Shown: piece by piece, positions 2,451-63,208 of the stretch
Position numbering within the stretch: the stretch's first letter is position 1
Layout of the letters: each line of letters begins with the position of its first letter
NCBI GenBank assembly: GCA_002712005.1
Contig: PASP01000003.1
Span: forward strand, 59,383-123,382
DNA: 64,000 nt
Reading direction: 5' to 3'
DNA from: Halobacteriovoraceae bacterium
GTDB taxonomy: Bacteria > Bdellovibrionota > Bacteriovoracia > Bacteriovoracales > Bacteriovoracaceae
The notes under the pieces: model-generated
The model's database searches: none
Seen by the model: only the letters and a program-made list of their open reading frames with translations
What the model was told of the DNA's origin: nothing
Program-made: the position numbers and the translations under genes

Positions 2451-4199
2451 TTATCTAAGCTCAACTGGAACTTTTTCTTTGGCCAATTCAAGAAATTTTT
2501 CTTTCATTTCTTCAATACTGATGGAGGTACTGAATTTTGCACCATAGGAACGAATGGAGACACTTTGGTTTTCGATCTCTTTGTCCCCAATAACGAGCAT
2601 GAAAGGTACTTTTGCTTTTTGAGTTTGGCGAGTCTTATAACCCATGGACTCATTTCTATCGTCTAAGCGGACTCCGAAGCCAAGATCTTTTAATTCATTC
2701 TTTAATTGAGTCGCAAATTCTAAATGGTTATCATTTTTTACTGGAACAATTACCACTTGCTCAGGAGCAAGCCAGAACGGGAAAGCTCCCGCAACGTGCT
2801 CTATATAGACTCCAATGAATCTTTCTAAACTTCCCAAAAGGGCCCTGTGAATAACAACGGGTTGTGACTCATTTCCTTCGCGATTGACATATTTGAGGCC
2901 AAAACGTTCAGGTAATTGAAAGTCAAGTTGGATAGTTCCTAATTGATAATAACGATTAAGCGCATCAGCGATCTCTACATCGATTTTAGGACCGTAAAAT
3001 GCACCATCTCCTTCTTTGATGAAGAATTCATGGCCACTTTGTTTTAAAGCTTCTGTTAGAGCATTTTCAGCTTTATCCCAAGTTTCATCATCACCCGCTT
3101 TCTTCTCAGGTCGGGTTGATAGGTTTACCTTTATATTCTTAAAGCCAAAATGCTTGTAACAAACAAAGAACATTTCCATGAGCTTTTGGATTTCTTTTTG
3201 AATATCATCGAGCTCAAGGAAGATATGGGCATCGTCTTGGCAGAAGGTTCTTACTCTTGTTAGACCCGATACTGCTCCGGCCTTTTCATAGCGGTGAAGT
3301 CTTCCGAAGTCTGCGTAACGCATGGGAAGGTCTCTGTAACTATATTTATAATGTTTGAACATGAGCATGTGACAGGGACAGTTCATGGGTTTTGCCGCGT
3401 ATTCTCTTTCATCAATTTTTGAGAAATACATATTTTCTTTATAATGATCATAGTGACCTGAAGTATGCCATAGGTCTGAGTCTAGAATTTGAGGGGTAAT
3501 GACCTCTTGATAATCAAACTTTCTATAAACTCTTCTCATAAACTCTACGAGTTCGTTATAGATGATTGTTCCTTTGGGCATGAAGAAGGGTGAGCCTGGG
3601 GCAACATCCTCAAAATGGAAGAGTTCAAGTTCTTTACCTAATTTTCTATGGTCTCTCTTCTTCGCTTCTTCTAAGTTGTGAAGGTATTCTTTAAGTTCCT
3701 TCTTATCTTTGAAAGAGGCGGCATATACTCTTTGAAGCATTTGCCTTTTTTCATCCCCTCGCCAATAAGCACCTGCTACATGAAGAAGCTTGAAAGAAGG
3801 AGGGAGTTCACGAGTATTTTCAACGTGAGGACCACGACAAAGATCAATAAATTCACCTTGTTGATAGCAGCTGATTTCTTCATCGGCAGGAATATCTTTA
3901 ATCAACTCTACCTTTAGGGTTTGTCCCATATTATCGAAGAAGTCTACGGCTTCGTCTCTTTTCATGACTTTTCTTTCAATAGGAAGCTTTTCTTTGATGA
4001 TTTTTTTCATCTCAGCTTCAATATTCTTTAGATCATCCTCAGTGAGTCGATGTTCCATTTCAACATCGTAATAAAAGCCGGTATCGATAACCGGACCTAC
4101 ACCAAATTGAACATTGGCCTCTGGCCAAAGTCGATTAATGGCCTGGGCCATTAAGTGAGCAGAAGAGTGTCGGATAGTATCTAAATCGTAGTTCGCCAT
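2451..4199 (-). CDS. thrS: Threonine--tRNA ligase, short form without the N-terminal TGS domain
   Basis: RHSSAHLMAQA (HxxxH of the N2/editing domain), HRKLGKELELF, class-II core (PMNCPCH, LHRYEKAGAVSGLTRVRTFCQDDAH, GAFYGPKID, HRALLGSLERFIG) and an anticodon-binding domain. I chose ATG 4199 (MANYDL) because GGAG lies 10 nt upstream. The track ORF starts 15 codons earlier, at 4244. Confidence 0.95.
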   Translation of the reverse strand: MANYDLDTIRHSSAHLMAQAINRLWPEANVQFGVGPVIDTGFYYDVEMEHRLTEDDLKNIEAEMKKIIKEKLPIERKVMKRDEAVDFFDNMGQTLKVELIKDIPADEEISCYQQGEFIDLCRGPHVENTRELPPSFKLLHVAGAYWRGDEKRQMLQRVYAASFKDKKELKEYLHNLEEAKKRDHRKLGKELELFHFEDVAPGSPFFMPKGTIIYNELVEFMRRVYRKFDYQEVITPQILDSDLWHTSGHYDHYKENMYFSKIDEREYAAKPMNCPCHMLMFKHYKYSYRDLPMRYADFGRLHRYEKAGAVSGLTRVRTFCQDDAHIFLELDDIQKEIQKLMEMFFVCYKHFGFKNIKVNLSTRPEKKAGDDETWDKAENALTEALKQSGHEFFIKEGDGAFYGPKIDVEIADALNRYYQLGTIQLDFQLPERFGLKYVNREGNESQPVVIHRALLGSLERFIGVYIEHVAGAFPFWLAPEQVVIVPVKNDNHLEFATQLKNELKDLGFGVRLDDRNESMGYKTRQTQKAKVPFMLVIGDKEIENQSVSIRSYGAKFSTSISIEEMKEKFLELAKEKVPVELR

Positions 4200-4441: not shown

Positions 4442-5716
4442 ATGAATGAAACAATGAACCCAAATGCAAGTCAATCAGATGATCTCGATTGGGCATCCCT
4501 AGGCTACTTGGCCAATGATGATTTAGAGATTCCTGAAGATAAGCTTAATAAAAAAGATATTGGGCGTTCTTTCTATCAATTAGGAAAACTTTTTTACGAT
4601 AAGTCTGATCTTGTCCAAGCAGAGAAGAACTTTGTTAAAGCCTATCAATGTGCTGAAAGACCTCAGGATACTTTTTCAATATTAAAAATCTTAGGTTTTC
4701 TTATTCGAATAGCCTCTGAGAAATTGGAAGATGATAAAGCGAATACCTATATTAAAGAAGCAGAGTCTATTGTTGAAGCAGCTTCTGAAACTTTAGGAAG
4801 TTTAAATGCAGAGTACTTTTATAATGTTGGGCTAATCAACACTTATAAAGGAGACTTTGATCTTGCTCGCCAAAATTACGAATTTGCTTATAAGAAATCT
4901 AAAGAAGAAAATGAACCAGAGCTTTTGGCAAAAACTCTCTTGGCCTTGGCCCAGAATGGTTACAATCTAAAGAATTTTGAAAAATCTTTAGATTACTTAA
5001 ATCAGCTCAACCAGCTTTTAAAAATCATCAAAAAATACTATCTCTCAGGAGCGATGTTTCTTTTTTCTGCTAAGGTTTTTACAGAAATGGAAATGTATGA
5101 CAAAGCTCTTGAGCATTTTACTTTGGCCAACAAGGCCTTACAGGATAAGAAGTGTTGGAACTTATATGGGTACGTACTTCTAGGTAAGGGAATTGTTTAT
5201 AAGCGCTCAGGTAATTACGAAAAGGCATTGGCTTACTTTATGCTGGCCTTAGAATCTAATGATGGCTCAACTTTTAGAAGACTAAGTGAGCTTATTGAAA
5301 ATGAGATTGCTGATGTTAATGATAATTCAGTCGATCTCTATCTCGATCGGACCAATAGAAAAGTGAAAGAAAGATCTTTAGGAACAATTGATTTTAAACA
5401 TCGTTTTGTTCTTCTTGAGATTCTTTTTCTCTTGGCCAGAAACCCTGGTAGCTACTACGATAAAGAAGAGCTCGCTCAACAAATTTGGAAGGATGAATAC
5501 AATCCTCTTATTCACGATAAATTAATCTATACTTCAGTTAGTCGTTTAAGAAAGCTTATTGAGCCTAAGAATGATCGTGGAGATAAGAGAAAGTATATTA
5601 TACGTGGTAAGGATGGTTATACATTTAATCCTCAGGCCAATATTCGCTTTCACATGGAAAGCCGAAATGACCAACCTAGGTCTATTGGTAATATCGAGTT
5701 AAGTTCTCCAGTTTAA
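4442..5716 (+). CDS. TPR-repeat protein with a C-terminal OmpR/PhoB-type winged-helix DNA-binding domain and no receiver domain
   Basis: About 300 aa of TPR-like helical repeats (YYNVGLINTYKGDFDLARQNYEFAYK, GKGIVYKRSGNYEKALAYF). The C-terminus reads LLEILFLLARNPGSYYDKEELAQQIWKDEY...IYTSVSRLRKLIEP...YIIRGKDGYTF, the Trans_reg_C pattern. Confidence 0.75.
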   Translation: MNETMNPNASQSDDLDWASLGYLANDDLEIPEDKLNKKDIGRSFYQLGKLFYDKSDLVQAEKNFVKAYQCAERPQDTFSILKILGFLIRIASEKLEDDKANTYIKEAESIVEAASETLGSLNAEYFYNVGLINTYKGDFDLARQNYEFAYKKSKEENEPELLAKTLLALAQNGYNLKNFEKSLDYLNQLNQLLKIIKKYYLSGAMFLFSAKVFTEMEMYDKALEHFTLANKALQDKKCWNLYGYVLLGKGIVYKRSGNYEKALAYFMLALESNDGSTFRRLSELIENEIADVNDNSVDLYLDRTNRKVKERSLGTIDFKHRFVLLEILFLLARNPGSYYDKEELAQQIWKDEYNPLIHDKLIYTSVSRLRKLIEPKNDRGDKRKYIIRGKDGYTFNPQANIRFHMESRNDQPRSIGNIELSSPV

Positions 5717-5730
5717 TAAAAGATAGGAAA

Positions 5731-6423
5731 ATGAATAAAGCTCAGTATAATGGCTTTATGAAAAGAATTTTCCTATTATTACTTTTATCAATGAGCTTCA
5801 TTTCTATTGGGTTTGAAGTTATGGCCCAGCCAACTGAGGAAGTTGATAAAAGCAAAACTGAGGACGAATTACCAAGTTTAAAAGATATGGCCCTTGTCCG
5901 TTTAGGAGGGCAAGTCTATTTCCTCAAAGATATTGAAGATCTCCAAGTTTCCTTTAAGGCCTTAAGTTGTATCCACAAAAATTCTTATATAGAAAAATTT
6001 TTAATGGCTTCTCCGGGGCCCTTAGTTTCTGAGAGCTGGGCAAAAGCTTCTCAAGTTCAAGCCTTACCTGATCAATTGAAAGCTTTTATTCTGATTGAGA
6101 AATTGAAACTCTCTTCTATCAGCTCTTCTTATACTCGTCTTGATGATCGCGACTTAGTGAAACTATCTAGGGATTGTGCTCGTTTAAAATGGGCAGAGTT
6201 AAGTTCAGATGAGAAATCTTTATTCATTTCTGAGATTTATTTAAGGCAGCGTTTTTCTAGCTCAAAGAATTTAGAACTTTCTTTAGATGAATTTGTGAAA
6301 AGCTTGAATATTCAACATTCCCATGAACTCTTGAGAATAAGACCTTCTCGCTTAAGTAAGAAACTTCTGGAGAAGCTAAGTCGAGGGCCAGTTAATCATG
6401 ATCAAGATCAAAACGCTGAATAA
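5731..6423 (+). CDS. Hypothetical exported protein
   Basis: 230-aa ORF with AGGAAA upstream of the ATG. A hydrophobic signal-like segment (IFLLLLLSMSFISIGFEVMA) follows a short N-region. No domain recognised. Confidence 0.6.
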   Translation: MNKAQYNGFMKRIFLLLLLSMSFISIGFEVMAQPTEEVDKSKTEDELPSLKDMALVRLGGQVYFLKDIEDLQVSFKALSCIHKNSYIEKFLMASPGPLVSESWAKASQVQALPDQLKAFILIEKLKLSSISSSYTRLDDRDLVKLSRDCARLKWAELSSDEKSLFISEIYLRQRFSSSKNLELSLDEFVKSLNIQHSHELLRIRPSRLSKKLLEKLSRGPVNHDQDQNAE

Positions 6424-6451
6424 TATCCCCATGTCAGAGCTACTTCTATAA

Positions 6452-6943
6452 ATGAATACAAAATATAATATCATTTCCCAAAAGAGAATTTTGGCCAATC
6501 CTAAACTCTTAGAGCAATGTGAGCAGCTCGATTTCACTTACTTTCCAAGGCCATGGAAGAAGGGTGAGCTCGCTAAATTTGCGGCTACAAGGAAAGAAGA
6601 CTTGTTTATAAGGGGCATCAGTGATGACCTAGATCGAGTGATCGGTTTTATTTTTGGTGTAAATGATCCTTTTCTTCAACAATTTCATCTGTATAAGATA
6701 ATGATTCATCCAGATTATCGAGGAAAGTCACTCTCTTTATCCTTAATGAAACACGCCTATAATGAGCTAGTGCGCCAAGGAATCCTCAATATTTATTTAG
6801 AAGTTGAAGTGGATAATGATGTGGCCATTCGACTTTATGAGCGGGTGGGTCTAGATAAGGTGCATCGAGTCAAGTCTTTCTATAGTGACGGTAAGGATGC
6901 TCATATAATGACTGGCGTTATAAATCATAATTTATTTGATTGA
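6452..6943 (+). CDS. GNAT family N-acetyltransferase, RimI-like
   Basis: HLYKIMIHPDYRGKSLSLSLMKHAYNELVRQGILNIYLEVEVDNDVAIRLYERVGL matches the acetyl-CoA binding core of RimI-type GNATs. Confidence 0.8.
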   Translation: MNTKYNIISQKRILANPKLLEQCEQLDFTYFPRPWKKGELAKFAATRKEDLFIRGISDDLDRVIGFIFGVNDPFLQQFHLYKIMIHPDYRGKSLSLSLMKHAYNELVRQGILNIYLEVEVDNDVAIRLYERVGLDKVHRVKSFYSDGKDAHIMTGVINHNLFD

Positions 6944-7017
6944 ATATACATTGCACTTTGGCGAAGTTTTTGATAAAAATACAATGTCTCAATGACATAA
7001 ATACTCGATTTTAAGTA

Positions 7018-7051
7018 GGGTGGATTTTTTTAATTTCCGCCCTTTTTTTTT
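7018..7051 (+). terminator. Rho-independent terminator after the GNAT gene
   Basis: Stem GGGTGGA (7018-7024) pairs with TCCGCCC (7036-7042) with one G-U pair, followed by a 9-T run (7043-7051). Confidence 0.7.
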
Positions 7052-56069: not shown

Positions 56070-56555
56070 ATGATAAAAAATGCTACTGAAAAACTTAAGC
56101 AAACAGCTTATGTGAGATTATTTGGTTTAACTAAAATTCCTTTGATTTGGTTTATTTCTCCAGTTATTGAAAAAATGGATAGTACCCAAACCATTGTGAA
56201 GATTCCCTTAAAGAGAAAGACGAAGAATCATCTCAATTCTATGTATTTTGGTGTTATGTGTGCTGCTGCAGACATTGCTGGCGGTTTGGCCGCGATGAAA
56301 CAGATTCAAGACTCCGGTCGAAAAATTTCGTTATCTTTTAAAGATTTTAAAGCAGAATTTCATAAAAGAGCAGAGGGCGATACTCTCTTCATTAATCAAC
56401 AAGGCGCAGAGGTTAAAGACTTTATCGCCCAAGTTATTGAGTCTGGAGAAAGGATGAATATGCCCGTAGAAGTCATTGCTAAGACCCCTTCTAAGATGGG
56501 TGATGAGCCTGTAGCTTCCTTTACCTTAACCTTATCTTGTAAGTTAAAGAAATAG
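56070..56555 (+). CDS. Hotdog-fold thioesterase-like protein (PaaI/DUF4442-like)
   Basis: 161 aa. NSMYFGVMCAAADIAGGLAAM and the surrounding pattern resemble PaaI/DUF4442 hotdog proteins. The assignment is by motif only. Confidence 0.6.
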   Translation: MIKNATEKLKQTAYVRLFGLTKIPLIWFISPVIEKMDSTQTIVKIPLKRKTKNHLNSMYFGVMCAAADIAGGLAAMKQIQDSGRKISLSFKDFKAEFHKRAEGDTLFINQQGAEVKDFIAQVIESGERMNMPVEVIAKTPSKMGDEPVASFTLTLSCKLKK

Positions 56556-56557
56556 GA

Positions 56558-58150
56558 CTATATACCATTTATATAGTCTCTATTCTCATCTTCAATTTCT
56601 TTCTTGGTTTTAAGAAACTCATCCTTACAGGCCTTATCTAGTGTCTTCTTTAGAAATTGGCTTCCCCTCGTTTTCTTATCCACAACGAAGCAGCCTCCAT
56701 TAAGATATTTCTTGGGATGGAAGTAACGAAGAGTTGTCTCTGAGGGTTTACACTTCTTTGAAGAAACTGAACTTGAATAAAGAAGTGGACCTTTTTCTTT
56801 ATCGATTTCATAACATTTTCCAAAAAAGACAAGATTATCTTTATTTGAAATGATGCTATCAATATTAATTAAACTTTTAGATCTTTTTCTTTGTTTAGCA
56901 ATCCATTTTATAGGGAATGCATCAGGTGTATACCAATAGTATCGCGTACTCTCTGTTTTACAATTCTTATCCGTTGTATTTCCCCAGACCTCTTCACCAC
57001 GATAGAGAGACATTTTCTTACACTGACCTTCAAATGGATTCTCTGAGTTCGGGATCCACTTGAATTCTGTGGTACGTATGGTGCAGTATTTCTTGCTGAT
57101 ACTTCTTCTATAGCCTGATTCTTTATTCTTCTTATCTATCTCTATACAGTAAGATTTTTTGTTATAGGTGAGGGGAATGATTTCTAATTCTTCAACTCTA
57201 TCTTTGCATTGATCAAGTCCTGTTTTCTTTGTGACTTTTTTGCCCTGGGTTTCTTGGTCTATCTGAAAGCATTGTCCCGCAATGGGAGAGACTTTGATAA
57301 ATCGATAATCCATTTTAATATCTTTTAAGCAGAGTTCATCATTGACCTTATTTTGAAAACGATTTGTACTGAGGTCTTTACTTATTTCTAAGCAATAGGG
57401 ATCTTCACTCTGTACCCACTGATAGATGAGATTCGAGGCATCAGGTCGGCACTTATTTTTTGAAGCTGTAGCAATATAGTTCGCGATATTGCCATCTTTT
57501 GGAATTTCAAAGCATCTTCCTCTTTCACTATTCCAGATAAATTGGGTTTTATCAGGTCTACACTCCGAAAGAGAAGTGGGTTTAGACAGGTTGTTGACTT
57601 TATCGATTTCGAAACATTGCCCGCGAATTCCGGATGGTCCTAAGACAAATTTCATTTCTATTTGGGAAGATTTACAGAAATCAAAATTAACCTTCTTTAC
57701 AAAAGGTGTGGTTTCAAACTGTCCTAAGAGATAACAACTCCCTTCACTTAAAGTATACTCTTTATTCTTTGGAGTGCAGAATTTCCAAGATACAGGTTTA
57801 GAGTACTGATTTCCTCCGGTTGCTCTATCCACTTCAAAACATTTTCCTTTCGGTGCAGTCTGATCCTGAATCCAACGGTGTGAGATTTCTTCCTTTCCTG
57901 GATAGCACTTACTTGAGGGCACTATGCTTTGATATTTCTGGCCTGAAGTCTCGCGATCAAGTTCATAACATTTACCAGAAAATTTCTTACCCTCCATATT
58001 TTGAGGAAGCCACTGATAGTAAGTTGAACTAACCGCATCGTACTGAGCACTGAGGGGGGAGGATAAGATTAAAAAGAGAACTCCCCCCAGAAGACTTATT
58101 GGGGTTAGGGATTTGAAGTTGAGGAATTTTTGATGGAATGAACAGACCAC
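56558..58150 (-). CDS. Secreted protein made of about 11 tandem two-cysteine modules (unrecognised repeat family)
   Basis: Signal peptide (ISLLGGVLFLILSSPLSA). The repeated module is about 40-48 aa: aromatic-x-W...G-x-C-[FY]-E-[IV]-D-x3-G...C-x-P. Examples: GKCYELDRETSGQKYQSIVPSSKCYP, GKCFEVDRATGGNQYSKPVSWKFCTP, GQCFEIDKVNNLSKPTSLSECRP, GRCFEIPKDGNIANYIATASKNKCRP, GKCYEIDKEKGPLLYSSSVSSKKCKP. GTG start lies 46 nt inside the upstream receiver gene. Confidence 0.75.
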   Translation of the reverse strand: MVCSFHQKFLNFKSLTPISLLGGVLFLILSSPLSAQYDAVSSTYYQWLPQNMEGKKFSGKCYELDRETSGQKYQSIVPSSKCYPGKEEISHRWIQDQTAPKGKCFEVDRATGGNQYSKPVSWKFCTPKNKEYTLSEGSCYLLGQFETTPFVKKVNFDFCKSSQIEMKFVLGPSGIRGQCFEIDKVNNLSKPTSLSECRPDKTQFIWNSERGRCFEIPKDGNIANYIATASKNKCRPDASNLIYQWVQSEDPYCLEISKDLSTNRFQNKVNDELCLKDIKMDYRFIKVSPIAGQCFQIDQETQGKKVTKKTGLDQCKDRVEELEIIPLTYNKKSYCIEIDKKNKESGYRRSISKKYCTIRTTEFKWIPNSENPFEGQCKKMSLYRGEEVWGNTTDKNCKTESTRYYWYTPDAFPIKWIAKQRKRSKSLINIDSIISNKDNLVFFGKCYEIDKEKGPLLYSSSVSSKKCKPSETTLRYFHPKKYLNGGCFVVDKKTRGSQFLKKTLDKACKDEFLKTKKEIEDENRDYINGI

Positions 58151-58536
58151 GCACTAAAAACCTTATCTTTAAATTCGTTATGACCCCAGGGTTTTACTAA
58201 GTAATCAGATGTTCCTGATTCTGTTGCACTCAGCATCTCCGTAACATCATCATTGGCCGTAACCATGAGAAAGGGGATATTCTTTATTTTATCATGGGAT
58301 CGCACATATTTTAAAAGATCGAGTCCTGTAAAGTTTTCGAGATTCCAGTCACTAATAATATAGTCGGCAATTTCGCTGATTTTCTTGGCCTCTTCAAAAT
58401 TATCACTGATGGTGATCGGACCACTAAATTTCAACTGTTCTAAACCCATCTTGATGACTTCTGCGACATCTTCTTCATCCTCAACAATAAGAAAGTGGGT
58501 TTTGGGATCCATTTCAATTTCATCGTGCACTAGCAT
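58105..58536 (-). CDS. Single-domain CheY-like response regulator (receiver only)
   Basis: HFLIVEDEEDVAEVIK (acidic pocket), YIISDWNL (phospho-acceptor Asp), FLMVTAN (Thr) and YLVKPW (Lys). 143 aa with no output domain. No histidine kinase in the window. Confidence 0.9.
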   Translation of the reverse strand: MLVHDEIEMDPKTHFLIVEDEEDVAEVIKMGLEQLKFSGPITISDNFEEAKKISEIADYIISDWNLENFTGLDLLKYVRSHDKIKNIPFLMVTANDDVTEMLSATESGTSDYLVKPWGHNEFKDKVFSAWSVHSIKNSSTSNP

Positions 58537-58623: not shown

Positions 58624-59466
58624 GTGAATTTCTTAGAAGAATTTTTTATTTTATTAAACGATTTTACCGATAAAAGAAGTATGAAATTAAGAAATCTTAA
58701 TAAAAGCTACCTTACTGCCAGTTTTTACACATTAATTTTTTCTACTACAGTTTACTGTGGTCTCCAATTTTTAAGTTTAAATTCTTACCTTAAAAGAGTT
58801 TTTATTTTACTTGGGGGCGATATCGCTAATGGAGGTATTATTCAGAGTTTTATATTCTTTTCGTTTATGTGGGCCTATCTTGAGATTCGCAAAGATAGAA
58901 AAGAAATAAAAAATGAATTTAAGTATTTATGTTTAGAATTATTACCTACTCGGGATAAGCATGTTCTCTTGCCCTTAGATATACCTCATATTGAATCTAA
59001 GCTGGCCAAGCTTGCTAAGTCTCAATCCCGTGATAAGGGTTCTATTCTTGTCCGACTTCTCAGTACGGCCTTATTAAAATTCAAATCTACTCAATCCATG
59101 AGTGAGACGATTGATGTCATTTCGATCCAAAGTGAAATATCTCGCGAACTTCATGAAAGTGAACACTCCAATATACGTTATCTTCTATGGCTGATTCCAA
59201 GTATTGGCTTTATTGGAACAGTTATTGGAATTTCTCAGGCCTTGAGCATTGCCGCTCAAGGGGATATGGAAGCGATTACAAGTATGCTAGGGGTGGCGTT
59301 TGATACGACTCTCGTCTCACTTGTTCTCAGCGCCATTGTTACGGGTCTTTTTCACCGACTCCAAGAAGAAACCGACAAACTTCATGCTCATATCAAAGAA
59401 TATGTCATTAGTAACTTTGTGAATCGTCTTGAAATTAAGAAAGATGATTTAAAATCAGCAGGGTAA
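58624..59466 (+). CDS. MotA/TolQ/ExbB-family proton-channel protein (4-TM, MotA-like topology)
   Basis: LWLIPSIGFIGTVIGISQAL...LGVAFDTTLVSLVLSAIVTGLF is the family-defining TM3/TM4 pattern (P-x-x-G-x-x-GTV-x-G ... A-x-x-TT-x-x-G/S-L). Two N-terminal TMs plus a cytoplasmic loop of about 100 aa. Start is GTG 58624 (track) or ATG 58681. Confidence 0.85.
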   Translation: MNFLEEFFILLNDFTDKRSMKLRNLNKSYLTASFYTLIFSTTVYCGLQFLSLNSYLKRVFILLGGDIANGGIIQSFIFFSFMWAYLEIRKDRKEIKNEFKYLCLELLPTRDKHVLLPLDIPHIESKLAKLAKSQSRDKGSILVRLLSTALLKFKSTQSMSETIDVISIQSEISRELHESEHSNIRYLLWLIPSIGFIGTVIGISQALSIAAQGDMEAITSMLGVAFDTTLVSLVLSAIVTGLFHRLQEETDKLHAHIKEYVISNFVNRLEIKKDDLKSAG

Positions 59467-59470
59467 TTTA

Positions 59471-60382
59471 ATGGCGTCGAAGAAAGAAATTCCCGGCCTT
59501 AATATTGCCCTTCTCGATATATTAACGGGTGCCCTCGGTGCGGTCATCATTCTCTTTGTTACAGTTCCTAAGGGAGTTAAGGATACTCCAGCTACGGAAA
59601 AAGCGAGAGGTCCTTCTGCTGAGGAGATTGCTAAAGAGAGTAAGGAAAGCCTTAGTAAAAAAATTCAAATTAGAGAAGAGGTGATTAAAAAGTTATCCCA
59701 AAAAATTCAGAATCTTGAAATGGAGAGTCGCAATAAAGAATCGATCTCTGAGGCAAAAATAAGAGAATTACAAGATAAAATGAAATATATGAGTGCTGAG
59801 ATTGAGCAGAATAATTATCAAGGTAAGGGGCTTCCTGTTGATGTAGGATTTGATTTTAAAGGTCGAAAAATTGTTTTTATTATTGATGTAAGCGGTTCGA
59901 TGAATAGAGAGGATCGAATTGGGCAAGTGAAAGCAGGGCTAAAAATGCTTATTACTTCAATGCCTAAAGATTATAATCTAGATGTGGTTGCTTTTCCCAA
60001 TCACCCTAGTGCGTACAGGCCTCTTTGGGGCGGGCTCAAAGCTCTTGATGAATTTAATAAAGATCATATTTATAGGTATCTTCTTAATTTAAAGGCCGTA
60101 GGATTTACCCCTACCGCTCAAGTCCTTAATTATGCCTTTGATACCTATCCCAATGCTACTGACTTTGTTCTTCTCTCTGATGGAGCTCCGACAAAGGGAA
60201 ATTCTAAAATTCCAGATAATATTTCTGAAATTCTTATTAATGTAAAACAAAGAAATAAGAAGAATATTAGAATAAGCACGATTGGGGTGGGTTCTTCTTT
60301 TTTAGATCGTAAAGATTCTTCGGCCTATGTTTTTTTACAAGAATTGGCACGTGATCACGGTGGCTTCTTTGTAGGTTTTTAA
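59471..60382 (+). CDS. ExbD/TolR/MotB-like membrane anchor fused to a coiled coil and a von Willebrand factor A (vWA) domain
   Basis: The N-terminus MASKKEIPGLNIALLDILTGALGAVIILFVTVP resembles the ExbD/TolR signature (basic tail, N-[IV]-x-P-L-[IL]-D-V-x-L-V-LL-I-F, TM-embedded Asp16). Residues about 45-115 are heptad-like and charged. The vWA domain has a full MIDAS: FIIDVSGSM (DxSxS at 59885-59899), GFTPT and LLSDGAPT. Starts 4 nt after the MotA/ExbB-like gene. Confidence 0.8.
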   Translation: MASKKEIPGLNIALLDILTGALGAVIILFVTVPKGVKDTPATEKARGPSAEEIAKESKESLSKKIQIREEVIKKLSQKIQNLEMESRNKESISEAKIRELQDKMKYMSAEIEQNNYQGKGLPVDVGFDFKGRKIVFIIDVSGSMNREDRIGQVKAGLKMLITSMPKDYNLDVVAFPNHPSAYRPLWGGLKALDEFNKDHIYRYLLNLKAVGFTPTAQVLNYAFDTYPNATDFVLLSDGAPTKGNSKIPDNISEILINVKQRNKKNIRISTIGVGSSFLDRKDSSAYVFLQELARDHGGFFVGF

Positions 60383-60419: not shown

Positions 60420-61007
60420 GTGGATTCATCTCTCTTTGATGTCGTCTTCCAAAATACTAAGAAGTGGGTTGAAGAGGTCGTCATCGGTTTAAATTTATGT
60501 CCTTTCGCCAAGAAATCATGGAATAGGGGAGCTTGGAGAATCGATATTCTTGAAGAGGATCAGCACCTTCCATCATTGAATCTTATCATCGCTGAAATTG
60601 AGAGTGCGATTCCATCCTTCAAAAGCGGTGAAATCGAAAATCAATTAATTGCTCTTCCTCGTTGTAAAGATTCCTTTATCCCGTTTCTTAATCTTTCTTC
60701 ACTTGTAGAGATGGAACTCGAGGTTAGAGGTCATCTTGAGGAAGTTCAAATGATCGTCTTTCATCCCGAGTTTAGATTTGAAGGTGAGGCAAAGAATGCT
60801 CGAGGAAATTATGTGAATCGTTCTCCTTATCCGACACTCCATATTTTGAAGAAAGAGGCCATGGATGAGATCGTCGCCGTCCATGGAGAAGAGATAGGGC
60901 TTGAGCTGAGTATGAATAACAATACATTTTTGTCATCGTTGAATGAAAAAGAATTTGAAGTTAAAATTCTATCGTATATAAAAAACTCTAACTGGCCTTT
61001 GGCGTAG
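60420..61007 (+). CDS. Conserved hypothetical protein, DUF1415-like
   Basis: The N-terminal WVEEVVIGLNLCPFAKK recalls the LCPFA motif of the DUF1415 family, from memory and unverified. GTG start, 195 aa. Confidence 0.55.
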   Translation: MDSSLFDVVFQNTKKWVEEVVIGLNLCPFAKKSWNRGAWRIDILEEDQHLPSLNLIIAEIESAIPSFKSGEIENQLIALPRCKDSFIPFLNLSSLVEMELEVRGHLEEVQMIVFHPEFRFEGEAKNARGNYVNRSPYPTLHILKKEAMDEIVAVHGEEIGLELSMNNNTFLSSLNEKEFEVKILSYIKNSNWPLA

Positions 61008-61014
61008 GTGAAAA

Positions 61015-61812
61015 ATGTTTAAGCCCCGTTCTTTTCTATTTCTTATAACAACCTCTCTTTTTATTTCTATTTCTAGTTGCAGTTCTTTCTCTGAAAAGAG
61101 AGAGCTTGAAAGTAAGAAAGAAAATCCTCAGACTCCGTTCTTAGTTGCTACAAAATATTTTCAAAATTCTGCTGAAGCTGCAGCCCTCTATCATCAAGGA
61201 TATAACGTAGCTTTCCAATATGTAGATTCTCTGATGAAGACTTATAGGGAAAAGAAGCCTGCTTGTGTCGTGCTCGATATTGACGAAACCGTTTTAAATA
61301 ACTCTTATTATCAAGGAAGCCTCTATCACGAAAGTAAGAGCTTCTCTGATGAAACTTGGGATGAGTGGGTAAGACAGTCTCGTGCCCCAGCACTTCCTGG
61401 TGTCGTAGAATATATTGAAAAGGTGAGAGAGTTAGGAGTGGAGGTAATCTTTATTACAAATCGCCGCTCTTATTTAATTGAACCTACTCTTGAAAATCTA
61501 ACTCGTGTTGGAATAAAAGCAGAAAGACGCTACATTGTAGGGAGAGATAAGATCCATTCAAAAGAAATGAGAAGAGCAAGATTTAAGAAATTCTGTAATA
61601 TCGTCCAGCTCATTGGAGATAATCTCTCTGACTTTTCCGACGACTATCAAGGAAGTACAATTCAAGAAAGAAAAGATAAATTAGAGTCTCAGCATTCTCT
61701 TTTAGGTTCTCGTTATATTCTTCTTCCTAATCCTATGTATGGAGACTGGAGAAAAACGATTCTTCCCAAGCCTCTAAAAAAGATGGAAGATCTTGATTCT
61801 TTAAAAAAATGA
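61015..61812 (+). CDS. Class C acid phosphatase / 5'-nucleotidase, lipoprotein e(P4) family (HAD superfamily)
   Basis: Lipobox ISISSC. VVLDIDETVLNNSYYQ and LIGDNLSDFSDDY form the bipartite DDDD motif of class C phosphatases. AGGTG RBS, 7 nt after the previous stop. Confidence 0.88.
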   Translation: MFKPRSFLFLITTSLFISISSCSSFSEKRELESKKENPQTPFLVATKYFQNSAEAAALYHQGYNVAFQYVDSLMKTYREKKPACVVLDIDETVLNNSYYQGSLYHESKSFSDETWDEWVRQSRAPALPGVVEYIEKVRELGVEVIFITNRRSYLIEPTLENLTRVGIKAERRYIVGRDKIHSKEMRRARFKKFCNIVQLIGDNLSDFSDDYQGSTIQERKDKLESQHSLLGSRYILLPNPMYGDWRKTILPKPLKKMEDLDSLKK

Positions 61813-61951: not shown

Positions 61952-63208
61952 GTGATGAAGGATATGAAAAAAGGCTCTGAGTTTTCAAAACTTATTCCAA
62001 AAGGCGAAATTATTTTTAAAGAAGGACAGTCGGGAGATTGTGCTTACCTTGTTGAAAGTGGACAAGTTGAACTCTACGTGACTTCACGTGATGAGAGCAC
62101 ACCTCTTTCCCTTCTTGGACCTGGTGAAATCTTTGGTGAGATGTCGATGTTAGATGGTTCTCGTCGAGAGACTTCGGCCAAGGCCAATACAGACGTCGTT
62201 CTCTCAGTGGTTTCAAAAGAGGCATTAAGCGAAAGAATTGATGAAGCCGATCCTATCGTAAGGTTGCTCATTAATATGTTGGCCAAGAGAACTCGTGAAA
62301 CTCTTAGAGTGAATAAGAGTATTACTCAAAAGAAGAAATTAAAGATTAAAGAATCAAGAAATAGTAATACGGAGATCACAGATATAAACCTAGGTTTAGA
62401 TGTGATCCAAAAAATTCGTTACGAAAAAGAGTTGCATGAAGCTTTGGAAAATAATGAATTTAAAATTCATTTTCAGCCCATCGTAAGTATTGAATCTCAA
62501 AATGTTGTGGGATTTGAAGCTCTAACAAGATGGAATAGTCCAGAGCATGGGCTGGTTCGTCCCGATATTTTTATGGGGATTGCTGAAGAAACAAGTCTTA
62601 TTGTTCCGCTAGGTCACTGGATTACAGAAACGGCCTGTCGTGAATTTGGTGAAATTCAAAAAAGCCTAGTGGATAAACTAGGAAAAATTCCACGTCTCTT
62701 TTGTTCCATAAATGTAAGCGGACGCCAGATGCAGGATCCTAAACTTTTTGAAATCCTTCAAAAGGCCACATGGCTTAATAAGATTCACCCCAAGCAAATT
62801 AAATTAGAAATTACAGAGCGTGTCTTTGTTGATGGTAGTTTTGTATATGACTGGATTTCTAAATGTCGTGAAAAGGGTTATTCGGTAGCTCTAGATGATT
62901 TTGGAACAGGTTATTCTTCACTTTCATCGCTTCATAAGATCAATGCTAATAACCTAAAAGTAGATAAGAGTTTCGTCCAGTCTATGGAAGAGGATCACGA
63001 TAATTATGTGATTGCTAAGTCGATTGTCGACATGGCACGTGGTCTCAATAAAACCGTAATCGCCGAGGGAATCGAAACCAAATCTCAGCTTAAAATGCTC
63101 AAGCAAATGGGTTGTAAATATGGTCAGGGCTATCTCTTTAGTCGTCCTATGGAAAAAGATCAAGTTATTGAATTTCTAACGCGATCTTCTCAAAAGAAAG
63201 CTGCCTAA
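61952..63208 (+). CDS. Cyclic-nucleotide-binding domain + EAL domain protein (c-di-GMP phosphodiesterase)
   Basis: cNMP-binding fold (IIFKEGQSGDCAYLVESGQVELY, GEIFGEMSMLDGSRRETSAKA). The EAL domain has all catalytic motifs: FQPIV, GFEALTRW, NVSGRQ, EITER, DDFGTGYSSL, KVDKSFV, EGIET, QGYLFSRP. Start is GTG 61952, ATG 61955 or ATG 61964. Confidence 0.9.
   Translation: MMKDMKKGSEFSKLIPKGEIIFKEGQSGDCAYLVESGQVELYVTSRDESTPLSLLGPGEIFGEMSMLDGSRRETSAKANTDVVLSVVSKEALSERIDEADPIVRLLINMLAKRTRETLRVNKSITQKKKLKIKESRNSNTEITDINLGLDVIQKIRYEKELHEALENNEFKIHFQPIVSIESQNVVGFEALTRWNSPEHGLVRPDIFMGIAEETSLIVPLGHWITETACREFGEIQKSLVDKLGKIPRLFCSINVSGRQMQDPKLFEILQKATWLNKIHPKQIKLEITERVFVDGSFVYDWISKCREKGYSVALDDFGTGYSSLSSLHKINANNLKVDKSFVQSMEEDHDNYVIAKSIVDMARGLNKTVIAEGIETKSQLKMLKQMGCKYGQGYLFSRPMEKDQVIEFLTRSSQKKAA

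Follow-up and report, generated by a model that had tools for sequence, protein, structure and literature searches.

The stretch of DNA analyzed here (hereafter the window) is 64,000 nucleotides from a Halobacteriovoraceae bacterium of the Bdellovibrionota (assembly GCA_002712005.1, contig PASP01000003.1, positions 59,383 to 123,382 of the forward strand; G+C ~38%). It contains two adjacent genes whose products resemble the A and B subunits of the 5:2 ion-driven motors, in which a ring of five membrane proteins surrounds the helices of two others. Gene 1 encodes a ring-type protein of the MotA/ExbB/TolQ family, while gene 2 encodes a single transmembrane (TM) helix, a stalk, and a vWA domain with a complete metal ion-dependent adhesion site (MIDAS). 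The two open reading frames (ORFs) lie 4 nt apart, and a ribosome-binding-site-like AGCAGGG for gene 2 is located within the end of gene 1 (Table 1). Both proteins are 99–100% identical to proteins of Halobacteriovoraceae metagenome-assembled genomes (MAGs). An earlier note, made from the sequence alone, had read the pair as a proton-driven motor with a vWA output; the ORF coordinates, spacing, and peptide strings that it quoted are all present. Our data make it likely that the two products assemble into a self-contained membrane complex of the MotAB/ExbBD/TolQR type, driven by ions and most likely by protons.

Table 1 Features of the gene pair and of the genes beside it, in window coordinates.
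Feature	Position	Strand	Details
Gene 1 (A subunit), MotA/ExbB/TolQ-family membrane protein	58624..59466	+	ORF as listed, 280 aa
Gene 1 penultimate TM helix, motif IPSIGFIGTVIGISQAL	59194..59244	+	Invariant P192, G198-T199-V200; T199 codon 59218-59220
Gene 1 last TM helix, motif AFDTTLVSLVLSAIV	59296..59340	+	Invariant F226-D227-T228-T229; T228/T229 codons 59305-59310
Gene 2 (proposed B subunit)	59471..60382	+	ORF, 303 aa; short basic N-tail, transpore-type TM helix, stalk, vWA domain
Gene 2 TM helix, residues 10-32 (LNIALLDILTGALGAVIILFVTV)	59498..59566	+	Asp16 codon 59516-59518; followed by P33, K34
Gene 2 stalk, residues 58-112	59642..59806	+	Single long alpha-helix, charged; AlphaFold2 secondary structure
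Gene 2 vWA domain, residues 126-303	59846..60379	+	Pfam VWA_3, VWA_2, VWA; complete MIDAS
Receiver-only response regulator, divergent	58105-58536	-	
DUF1415 gene	60420-61007		37 nt past gene 2
e(P4)-family 5'-nucleotidase (e(P4) phosphatase)	61015-61812		7 nt past DUF1415
cNMP-binding EAL protein	61952-63208	+	

The claimed membership of gene 1 in the MotA/ExbB family was borne out by a Pfam match to MotA_ExbB (PF01618; E=2.5e-11, residues 144–257) that scored 43.9 bits against a gathering score of 22.9, and the same domain was present in 120 of 120 gene 1 homologues among the matches listed. NCBIfam matches to PomA, TolQ, and MotA were weak and sub-threshold. The AlphaFold2 (AF2) model of the gene 1 monomer (predicted local distance difference test score, pLDDT, of 85) begins with a hydrophobic helix and a short loop bearing an invariant LLGG..NGG-type motif, continues through a second TM helix into a helical cytoplasmic domain, and closes with two further TM helices. 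In a Foldseek search of the PDB, the top 27 matches to this model were ExbB/TolQ chains, with MotA and ZorA lower; query-normalized TM-scores reached 0.57 among the matches listed, and E-values were modest (~2e-3), as is usual for all-helical membrane proteins. The MotA-like four-TM layout proposed earlier therefore stands in part: the extra N-terminal hydrophobic helix makes four TM segments plausible, but the overall predicted fold is nearer ExbB/TolQ than MotA.

Translation of gene 1 probably starts at the ATG at 58681 (Met20), giving a protein of 261 aa, since this is where orthologues begin; a purine-rich stretch precedes this codon. We rejected the GTG at 58624, which would give 280 aa, in its favor, and the first 19 codons of the listed ORF (58624-58680) are probably untranslated.

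The residues that line the pore in characterized motors are intact in gene 1. P192 and G198-T199-V200 in the penultimate helix, as well as F226-D227-T228-T229 in the last, were invariant in alignments of 23 and 88 orthologues. A profile alignment made with hhalign placed T199 opposite T145 of TolQ and P192 opposite the TolQ proline in 'SISPYIGLFGTVWG', while T229 aligned with T178 of Escherichia coli TolQ. Among PDB sequences, the gene 1 profile matched PomA best, across both pore helices, with the penultimate-helix motif aligned to 'VAPAMGMIGT' and T228/T229 to the threonines of 'LLTTLYG'. The threonine pair was also retained in five aligned A subunits from distant relatives (described below). 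In solved 5:2 motors, the Asp of the B subunit is ringed by such pore-lining threonines, a feature established for the family and restated in a recent survey (Mol Biol Evol 2025; PMC12204202). Gene 1 is thus a TolQ/ExbB-like ring subunit with its pore residues in place.

One acidic residue sets this ring apart. D227 (AFDTT; F226-D227 at 59299-59304) lies just before the pore threonines and is invariant in Bacteriovoracia; three of five distant A subunits kept it, and the remaining two have Y or F at this position. The Glu of TolQ/ExbB sits one turn earlier (Glu173 in TolQ) and is not conserved in gene 1. D227 could be a second ion-coordinating residue.

The TM helix of gene 2 (LNIALLDILTGALGAVIILFV, by direct reading) holds Asp16 and contains neither a His nor an SHLS motif. 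L15, D16, A21-I27, and P33 were invariant among both 24 and 98 orthologues, with K34 present in at least 90%. Asp16, the membrane-embedded residue on which the motor proposal hinged, was also invariant in a third alignment of 36 sequences reaching down to 21–28% identity. Mean column identity among gene 2 orthologues was 0.88 in the TM helix and 0.99 at P33-K34, as opposed to 0.65 in the vWA domain and 0.24–0.30 in the linker and stalk, so constraint is stronger on the helix than on the vWA domain. We interpret the helix as more than an anchor, because a plain anchor is not expected to be the most conserved part of a protein or to keep a buried acidic residue. With this lone N-terminal helix and its conserved membrane-embedded Asp, gene 2 would work like the B subunit of a 5:2 motor.

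The label 'ExbD/TolR-type anchor' given to gene 2 in the earlier note did not survive. Neither the whole protein, searched against Pfam for ExbD (PF02472), MotB, and OmpA, nor the N-terminal 48 residues of 18 orthologues, searched for ExbD and MotB_plug at E up to 10, gave a match. Homology of the helix to ExbD, TolR, or MotB was also sought with a profile of the 18 N-termini against both the PDB and Pfam (E<=10) and was rejected, as only chance matches were returned. We therefore speak of the same layout rather than the same type. The companion claim, that gene 2 lacks an ExbD/TolR or OmpA-like periplasmic domain and carries a vWA domain in its place, agrees with these searches.

The AF2 model of gene 2 (a monomer built with 98 homologues; mean pLDDT 85) comprises a TM helix (residues 10–30), a disordered segment (31–57), one unbroken helix (58–112), a short linker, and a vWA domain (133–303) with pLDDT >95. 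This replaces the heptad-like segment of about 70 residues described from the sequence with ~27 disordered residues and a 55-residue helix, although a moderate heptad pattern does exist: half (0.5) of the a/d positions are hydrophobic in the best register. The stalk is plausibly a dimeric coiled coil ~8 nm long in such a model. It is poorly conserved, and the spacer between the end of the TM helix and the MIDAS Asp varies from 72 to 118 residues among close orthologues. Pfam VWA_3, VWA_2, and VWA matched residues 133–299 at E-values of 1e-10 to 1e-6, and Foldseek matched the domain to the inter-alpha-inhibitor heavy chain, alpha2delta, CLCA1, and bacterial vWA structures (E 1e-10 to 1e-7). The MIDAS is complete, as had been claimed, with D139-x-S141-x-S143 (nt 59885-59899), T213, and D237 invariant in every alignment, including the most distant. 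A conserved C-terminal strand, GGFFVGF, ends the protein, and its GFF..F residues were invariant among both the 24 and the 98 orthologues.

The charges that flank the gene 2 helix favor an N-in topology with the vWA domain in the periplasm, since the N-terminal flank (net +2.8, with about three positives on the short tail) is more positive than the C-terminal flank (net +1.3). An inverted arrangement would make the vWA domain cytoplasmic, a membrane-tethered module binding intracellular peptides as in MoxR- or chelatase-type vWA systems (MoxR-vWA systems are reviewed in PMC7159879). The charges on the two flanks differ only moderately, and many bacterial vWA domains are indeed cytoplasmic. Yet Asp16 sits near the N-terminal end of its helix, which is the cytoplasmic end in MotB, ExbD, and TolR; no AAA+/MoxR partner is present; and vWA-FHA partners in the wider family bear a signal peptide that places their vWA domain in the periplasm. 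Together with the charges of the N-tail, these features make the inverted arrangement highly improbable.

Conservation of the pair across the class Bacteriovoracia was examined in one genome per species (GTDB), which yielded 123 relatives of gene 2; neighborhood counts refer to the best 80 of these. All 80 loci were labeled Bacteriovoracia/Bdellovibrionota except for one Sphingobacteriaceae-labeled MAG and a few with generic labels. A gene 1 homologue lay directly upstream of gene 2 on the same strand in every one (80/80), a co-conservation that the motor proposal had called for. In 54 of the 78 loci in which both ORFs were called, the stop codon of the first gene overlapped the start codon of the second, by 4 nt (39 loci) or 1 nt (15 loci), and we therefore infer translational coupling of the two genes. 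No second vWA paralogue occurred beside the pair in the window or in any of the 80 loci. Homologues of E. coli TolR, ExbD, and MotB were absent from the 64-kb window, and near the pair in the 80 loci the only instance was one ordinary, unrelated flagellar motAB pair 4 kb away. The Sphingobacteriaceae-labeled locus also contains a complete pair.

No other gene shares this association. Other candidate partners around the pair in the 80 loci were rejected, as they were limited to subclades and lay mostly on the opposite strand; these subclade flanks comprised a class IV aminotransferase, a Na+/H+ antiporter, an ABC/FtsX transporter, an SNF2 helicase, a thioesterase, an SLT transglycosylase, and an unannotated lipoprotein. 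Outside the seven closest loci, the flanks were unrelated housekeeping genes, mainly on the opposite strand. Neither the window nor the recurrent flanking families of the 80 loci included MoxR AAA+ ATPase, DUF58, or Bat/TPR genes, and no relatives of the pair were found on plasmids or phages. Given the constant adjacency, the unrelated flanks, and the lack of a conventional B subunit nearby, the pair is a self-contained bicistron kept across a bacterial class.

To place the pair in a wider context, 1.84 billion cluster representatives were searched exhaustively with a profile, which matched 7,175 proteins at E<=1e-3, 895 at E<=1e-10, and 84 at E<=1e-30. Generic vWA proteins probably account for many of the weaker matches; the wider family is put at roughly 1,200 or more members. 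Beneath the Bacteriovoracia core, however, were many proteins of 280–330 aa that aligned with gene 2 from end to end and shared its plan: a helix with F-(S/N)-x-S-x-L-D, a coiled coil, a vWA domain, and a C-terminal G-x-F-x-G. Named members came from Alphaproteobacteria (Rhodospirillaceae, Reyranellaceae, and Hellea) and from the gammaproteobacterium Ca. Thiodiazotropha. In the 36-sequence alignment of such relatives (~21–28% identity), complete invariance was confined to the TM Asp, a single TM Gly, and the MIDAS with its adjacent residues.

Eight distinct distant loci, from Alphaproteobacteria, Gammaproteobacteria, and metagenome contigs, carried a MotA_ExbB gene beside or near the vWA gene, with no ExbD or OmpA Pfam match recorded in any of them. 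Their A subunits scored 100–140 bits against the gene 1 profile, compared with 12.7 bits for E. coli TolQ and no match for ExbB or MotA. We conclude that ring and axle co-diverged as a dedicated pair and make up a separate clade of the superfamily. The locus from Ca. Thiodiazotropha taylori (L094) contains tandem, diverged helix-vWA genes (5267-6142 and 6160-7032, + strand), both bearing the Asp motif (SALDLFASALGAF and SSLDLFASAMGAF), and a MotA-like gene at 2858-3643 (- strand). This is the 'heterologous pair' arrangement of PMC12204202; all Bacteriovoracia loci have a single gene instead.

The pair in these distant loci is surrounded by small soluble FHA proteins, PP2C phosphatases, and Ser/Thr kinases (L084, 118-7424; L085, 1-9320; L087, 1326-8849; L089, 1500-9838; L090, 1375-8715; L092, 1-9318; L093, 3768-10630; L094, 1-9685). 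The clusters also hold bitopic proteins that combine a periplasmic vWA, trypsin, peptidoglycan-binding, or Sel1 domain with a cytoplasmic FHA domain. The vWA-FHA proteins of the wider family run in the order signal peptide, vWA, TM segment, FHA. Two loci show translational coupling between a small soluble FHA gene and the gene for the A subunit. In L093, a secretin-TPR gene also lies just upstream. No paper describing the association of the family with FHA, PP2C, kinase, and protease genes was found in the literature searched. The MoxR-vWA 'ternary systems' of PMC7159879 were considered as a description of the FHA/PP2C context and set aside, as they make no mention of MotA and are different systems. 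In other phyla, the family is wired to FHA, PP2C, and Ser/Thr-kinase signaling, to periplasmic proteases, and at one locus to a secretin, and its link to phospho-threonine signaling appears to be unreported.

Such surroundings are of a signaling type and raise the alternative that the complex forms but is a sensor or gated channel rather than a force-transmitting motor, in which the binding or loss of a periplasmic ligand at the vWA domains opens or closes ion flow through the ring and a signal emerges in the cytoplasm, by analogy with MotB unplugging or ZorAB activation. The bitopic proteins and the FHA genes coupled to A-subunit genes would fit this explanation, as would a weak match of gene 1 to ZorA in the PADLOC defense models (E=2e-4). 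However, none of the signaling partners occurred near the Bacteriovoracia pair in the 80 loci, and the pair is spread class-wide in housekeeping surroundings rather than in defense islands, plasmids, or phages. Sensing and force generation are, moreover, not mutually exclusive in known 5:2 systems. We regard a sensor or gated channel in place of a motor as unlikely. In the same PADLOC search, gene 2 matched nothing and no ZorB was found. A mobile defense system of the Zorya kind was rejected for this clade given the weakness of the ZorA match, the lack of adjacent effector genes, and the absence from plasmids and phages.

Our data establish the domain identities, the residue conservation, the strict coupling of the genes, and the lack of a conventional B subunit nearby, and they provide the basis for a motor model. 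Five gene 1 proteins would form an outer ring, and two gene 2 proteins would place their N-terminal helices in its pore; the single vWA gene per locus suggests that the axle is probably a homodimer. Asp16 would face a ring formed by T199 and T228/T229 and alternate between protonated and deprotonated states, and this cycling would drive relative rotation of ring and axle. Beyond the membrane, ~27 flexible residues would lead into the ~8-nm helical stalk, probably a coiled coil, which would display two MIDAS vWA domains in the periplasm, each able to bind an acidic residue of a partner via a divalent cation. The vWA domain may be a fixed anchor that holds its partner, as the OmpA-like domain of MotB holds peptidoglycan, or it may be the driven output that pulls or turns its partner, as proposed for TonB/TolA and GldM; by analogy either role would fit, and the data do not separate them. 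The core of the original proposal, a 5:2-type A/B pair, thus came through its checks, while its claims of novelty, of an ExbD/TolR-type anchor, and of neighbor involvement did not.

Several points weigh against this model. The parts that we infer are the 5:2 stoichiometry, ion flow and the use of protons, rotation, the placement of the vWA domain in the periplasm, and its ligand, and the charge bias that sets the topology of gene 2 is modest. Sequence homology of the gene 2 helix to ExbD, TolR, or MotB was undetectable, and so the assignment of gene 2 as a B subunit rests on layout and conservation. The link to the Idiomarina loihiensis reference proteins of PMC12204202 is indirect, running via the gammaproteobacterial locus with the same tandem-pair arrangement and via named relatives that are Alpha- and Gammaproteobacteria. 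Lastly, a group of long-stalk relatives of 413–484 aa (L091, 5001-6383, + strand; P0263 and P0265) shares the Bacteriovoracia-like TM helix and a C-terminal GF.IGF, with a coiled coil of ~250 residues between helix and vWA domain, and L091, as an exception, has no A-subunit gene within 11 kb. The helix-vWA protein may therefore not always need a dedicated ring. The neighbors of L091, a divergent PP2C gene and a PKD/Por_Secre_tail protein (type 9 secretion cargo), suggest a Bacteroidota host.

The case of L091 bears on a second alternative, that there is no single machine: gene 2 would be a membrane-anchored periplasmic vWA protein of the BatA/BatB type, and gene 1 an ExbB/TolQ paralogue that uses ExbD or TolR from elsewhere. 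Halobacteriovorax does have canonical Tol and Ton loci that could supply these subunits (supplement of PMC12204202), and the lack of profile similarity between the gene 2 helix and ExbD or MotB would fit. But a mere anchor should not be the best-conserved part of its protein or preserve an invariant membrane Asp in relatives of 21–28% identity, and unconnected genes should not stay side by side, their stop and start codons overlapping, in 80 of 80 loci. A and B subunits also co-diverge across phyla, and MoxR, DUF58, and Bat genes are missing from the vicinity. We therefore consider this alternative improbable and retain the motor model as the best account of the pair.

What such a motor would do in Bacteriovoracia is a more tentative matter. 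The pair could be the minimal, homodimeric form of an envelope-machine family, through which these obligate predators use protonmotive force to pull or hold a specific outer-membrane or prey-derived ligand via the MIDAS. We view this scenario as possible but doubtful; if true, it would represent a new physiological role for a 5:2 motor, for example in attachment, invasion, or envelope remodeling during predation. 

The genes that flank the pair in the window were where the earlier note had placed them, including the divergent receiver and the short intergenic distances downstream, but they do not appear to belong to the system. The receiver, DUF1415, e(P4), and cNMP-EAL genes occurred beside the pair only in the seven closest of the 80 loci and were rejected as components on this basis; the receiver, DUF1415, and e(P4) genes are lineage-specific neighbors. 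In a scan of the locus, promoter-like sites were at chance level, and a terminator scan found none.

Three other features of this neighborhood deserve mention. Between the window and loci L001–L007, the cNMP-binding EAL protein was 86–95% identical, compared with 40–66% for the DUF1415, e(P4), and receiver proteins and 51–75% for the motor pair, indicating unusually strong constraint on a cyclic di-GMP phosphodiesterase whose adjacent genes are far more diverged. The gene at 56558-58150 (- strand) encodes a protein of 530 aa whose N-terminus resembles a signal peptide and which contains about ten Cys-bearing repeats of ~45 residues (pattern G.C[FY]E[IV]D....G......); the protein had no Pfam or NCBIfam match and is kept beside the receiver gene in L001–L003. 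Thioesterase-fold genes recur one to two genes upstream of the TolQ-like gene: a DUF4442 gene in the window (56070-56555, + strand), and a 4HBT thioesterase in Halobacteriovorax sp. CON-3 and others (L043, 4753-5160, - strand). This resembles the position of ybgC upstream of tolQ in E. coli but may be a coincidence.

Flagella, TonB-dependent uptake, maintenance of the outer membrane, gliding together with type 9 secretion, and Zorya defense against phages all run on ion-driven 5:2 motors. Each newly understood output domain has revealed a new route by which inner-membrane energy reaches the envelope, and a vWA/MIDAS output is so far a prediction. With two genes, a probably homodimeric axle, and no accessory genes, the Bacteriovoracia version may be the simplest to study. 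It is conserved across the class, to which the cultivable genus Halobacteriovorax belongs (homologues in Halobacteriovorax marinus are P0147/P0080, tags A9Q84_12255/12250), and is thus well suited to cryo-electron microscopy and genetics.

Among known systems, Bat/MoxR-associated vWA systems differ from the pair in having the MoxR, DUF58, and Bat/TPR neighbors that are absent here. ZorA–ZorB shares a MotA/ExbB-type ring and a B subunit with a TM Asp, and ZorA chains appear low among the fold matches to gene 1; gene 1, however, lacks the long cytoplasmic tail of ZorA, and neither a ZorB match nor ZorC/D/E effector genes accompany it. GldL–GldM is similar in that the dimeric inner subunit continues into a long periplasmic structure thought to carry mechanical output, but neither protein of the pair had sequence or profile similarity to GldL or GldM, and the periplasmic part of GldM is a multi-domain rod, unlike the stalk and MIDAS vWA domain of gene 2.

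The flagellar stators MotA–MotB and PomA–PomB offer a closer parallel, with a ring subunit that likely has four TM helices (PomA being the best PDB match of the gene 1 profile) and a B subunit that combines a TM Asp with a periplasmic domain attaching to something outside the membrane. Gene 2, however, has no OmpA-like peptidoglycan-binding domain or plug helix; gene 1 lacks the FliG-facing cytoplasmic domain and matches the MotA fold less well than that of ExbB/TolQ; and the locus lies outside any flagellar gene context.

ExbB–ExbD and TolQ–TolR are 5:2 proton motors that energize TonB and TolA. Gene 1 shares with ExbB and TolQ its MotA_ExbB domain, its closest predicted fold, and threonines matching TolQ T145 and T178, while gene 2 resembles ExbD and TolR by analogy of layout, with a short basic N-tail and one TM helix with an Asp near the cytoplasmic end. 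The differences are that gene 2 lacks the ExbD/TolR periplasmic domain, no TonB/TolA-like third subunit is encoded nearby, and gene 1 has an extra N-terminal TM helix, only 15–16% identity to TolQ and ExbB, and, in place of a conserved Glu173, the clade-invariant D227 next to its threonines.

The nearest counterparts are the 'TPH-vWA' proteins of PMC12204202, which are paired with TolQ-like genes, have a 'transpore helix' with a conserved proton-binding Asp, and were predicted to form 5:2 motors; an AlphaFold 3 model of the 5:2 complex placed the Asp pair within a threonine ring. A class of TolQ-like motors with a vWA axle is thus already in the literature as a prediction, with the same architecture and the same Asp/Thr-ring argument, and the pair does not represent a new functional class as first supposed. 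The paper gives no known function or phenotype for these motors, and no experimental study of the family was found in the literature searched, in keeping with the earlier expectation that it had not been functionally characterized. What our analysis adds is a minimal form with a single, probably homodimeric, vWA protein that spans the predatory class Bacteriovoracia, a quantified stronger constraint on the helix than on the vWA domain, the co-divergence of ring and axle as their own clade, and the finding that distant members sit among FHA, PP2C, kinase, and protease genes, which gives a clue to the possible regulation of such motors.

Published TPH-vWA genes occur predominantly as heterologous pairs, mainly in Proteobacteria and Verrucomicrobia, whereas the pair described here is a stand-alone bicistron of Bacteriovoracia with one vWA gene per locus (80/80); pairing of vWA genes is not obligatory according to the paper. 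In other respects the two agree. A gene for a TM-tethered vWA protein stands beside a TolQ/ExbB-like gene, while tolR, exbD, and motB are missing from the surroundings; the helix of the vWA protein carries a conserved Asp, the ring subunit has conserved pore threonines, and the SHLS/His motif of TolA and TonB is absent. The family of the window also includes the gammaproteobacterial L094 with its tandem heterologous pair, and association with a tolQ-like gene is kept in the eight distant loci. The Bacteriovoracia pair therefore shares every testable feature of the TPH-vWA class except the non-obligatory pairing of vWA genes.

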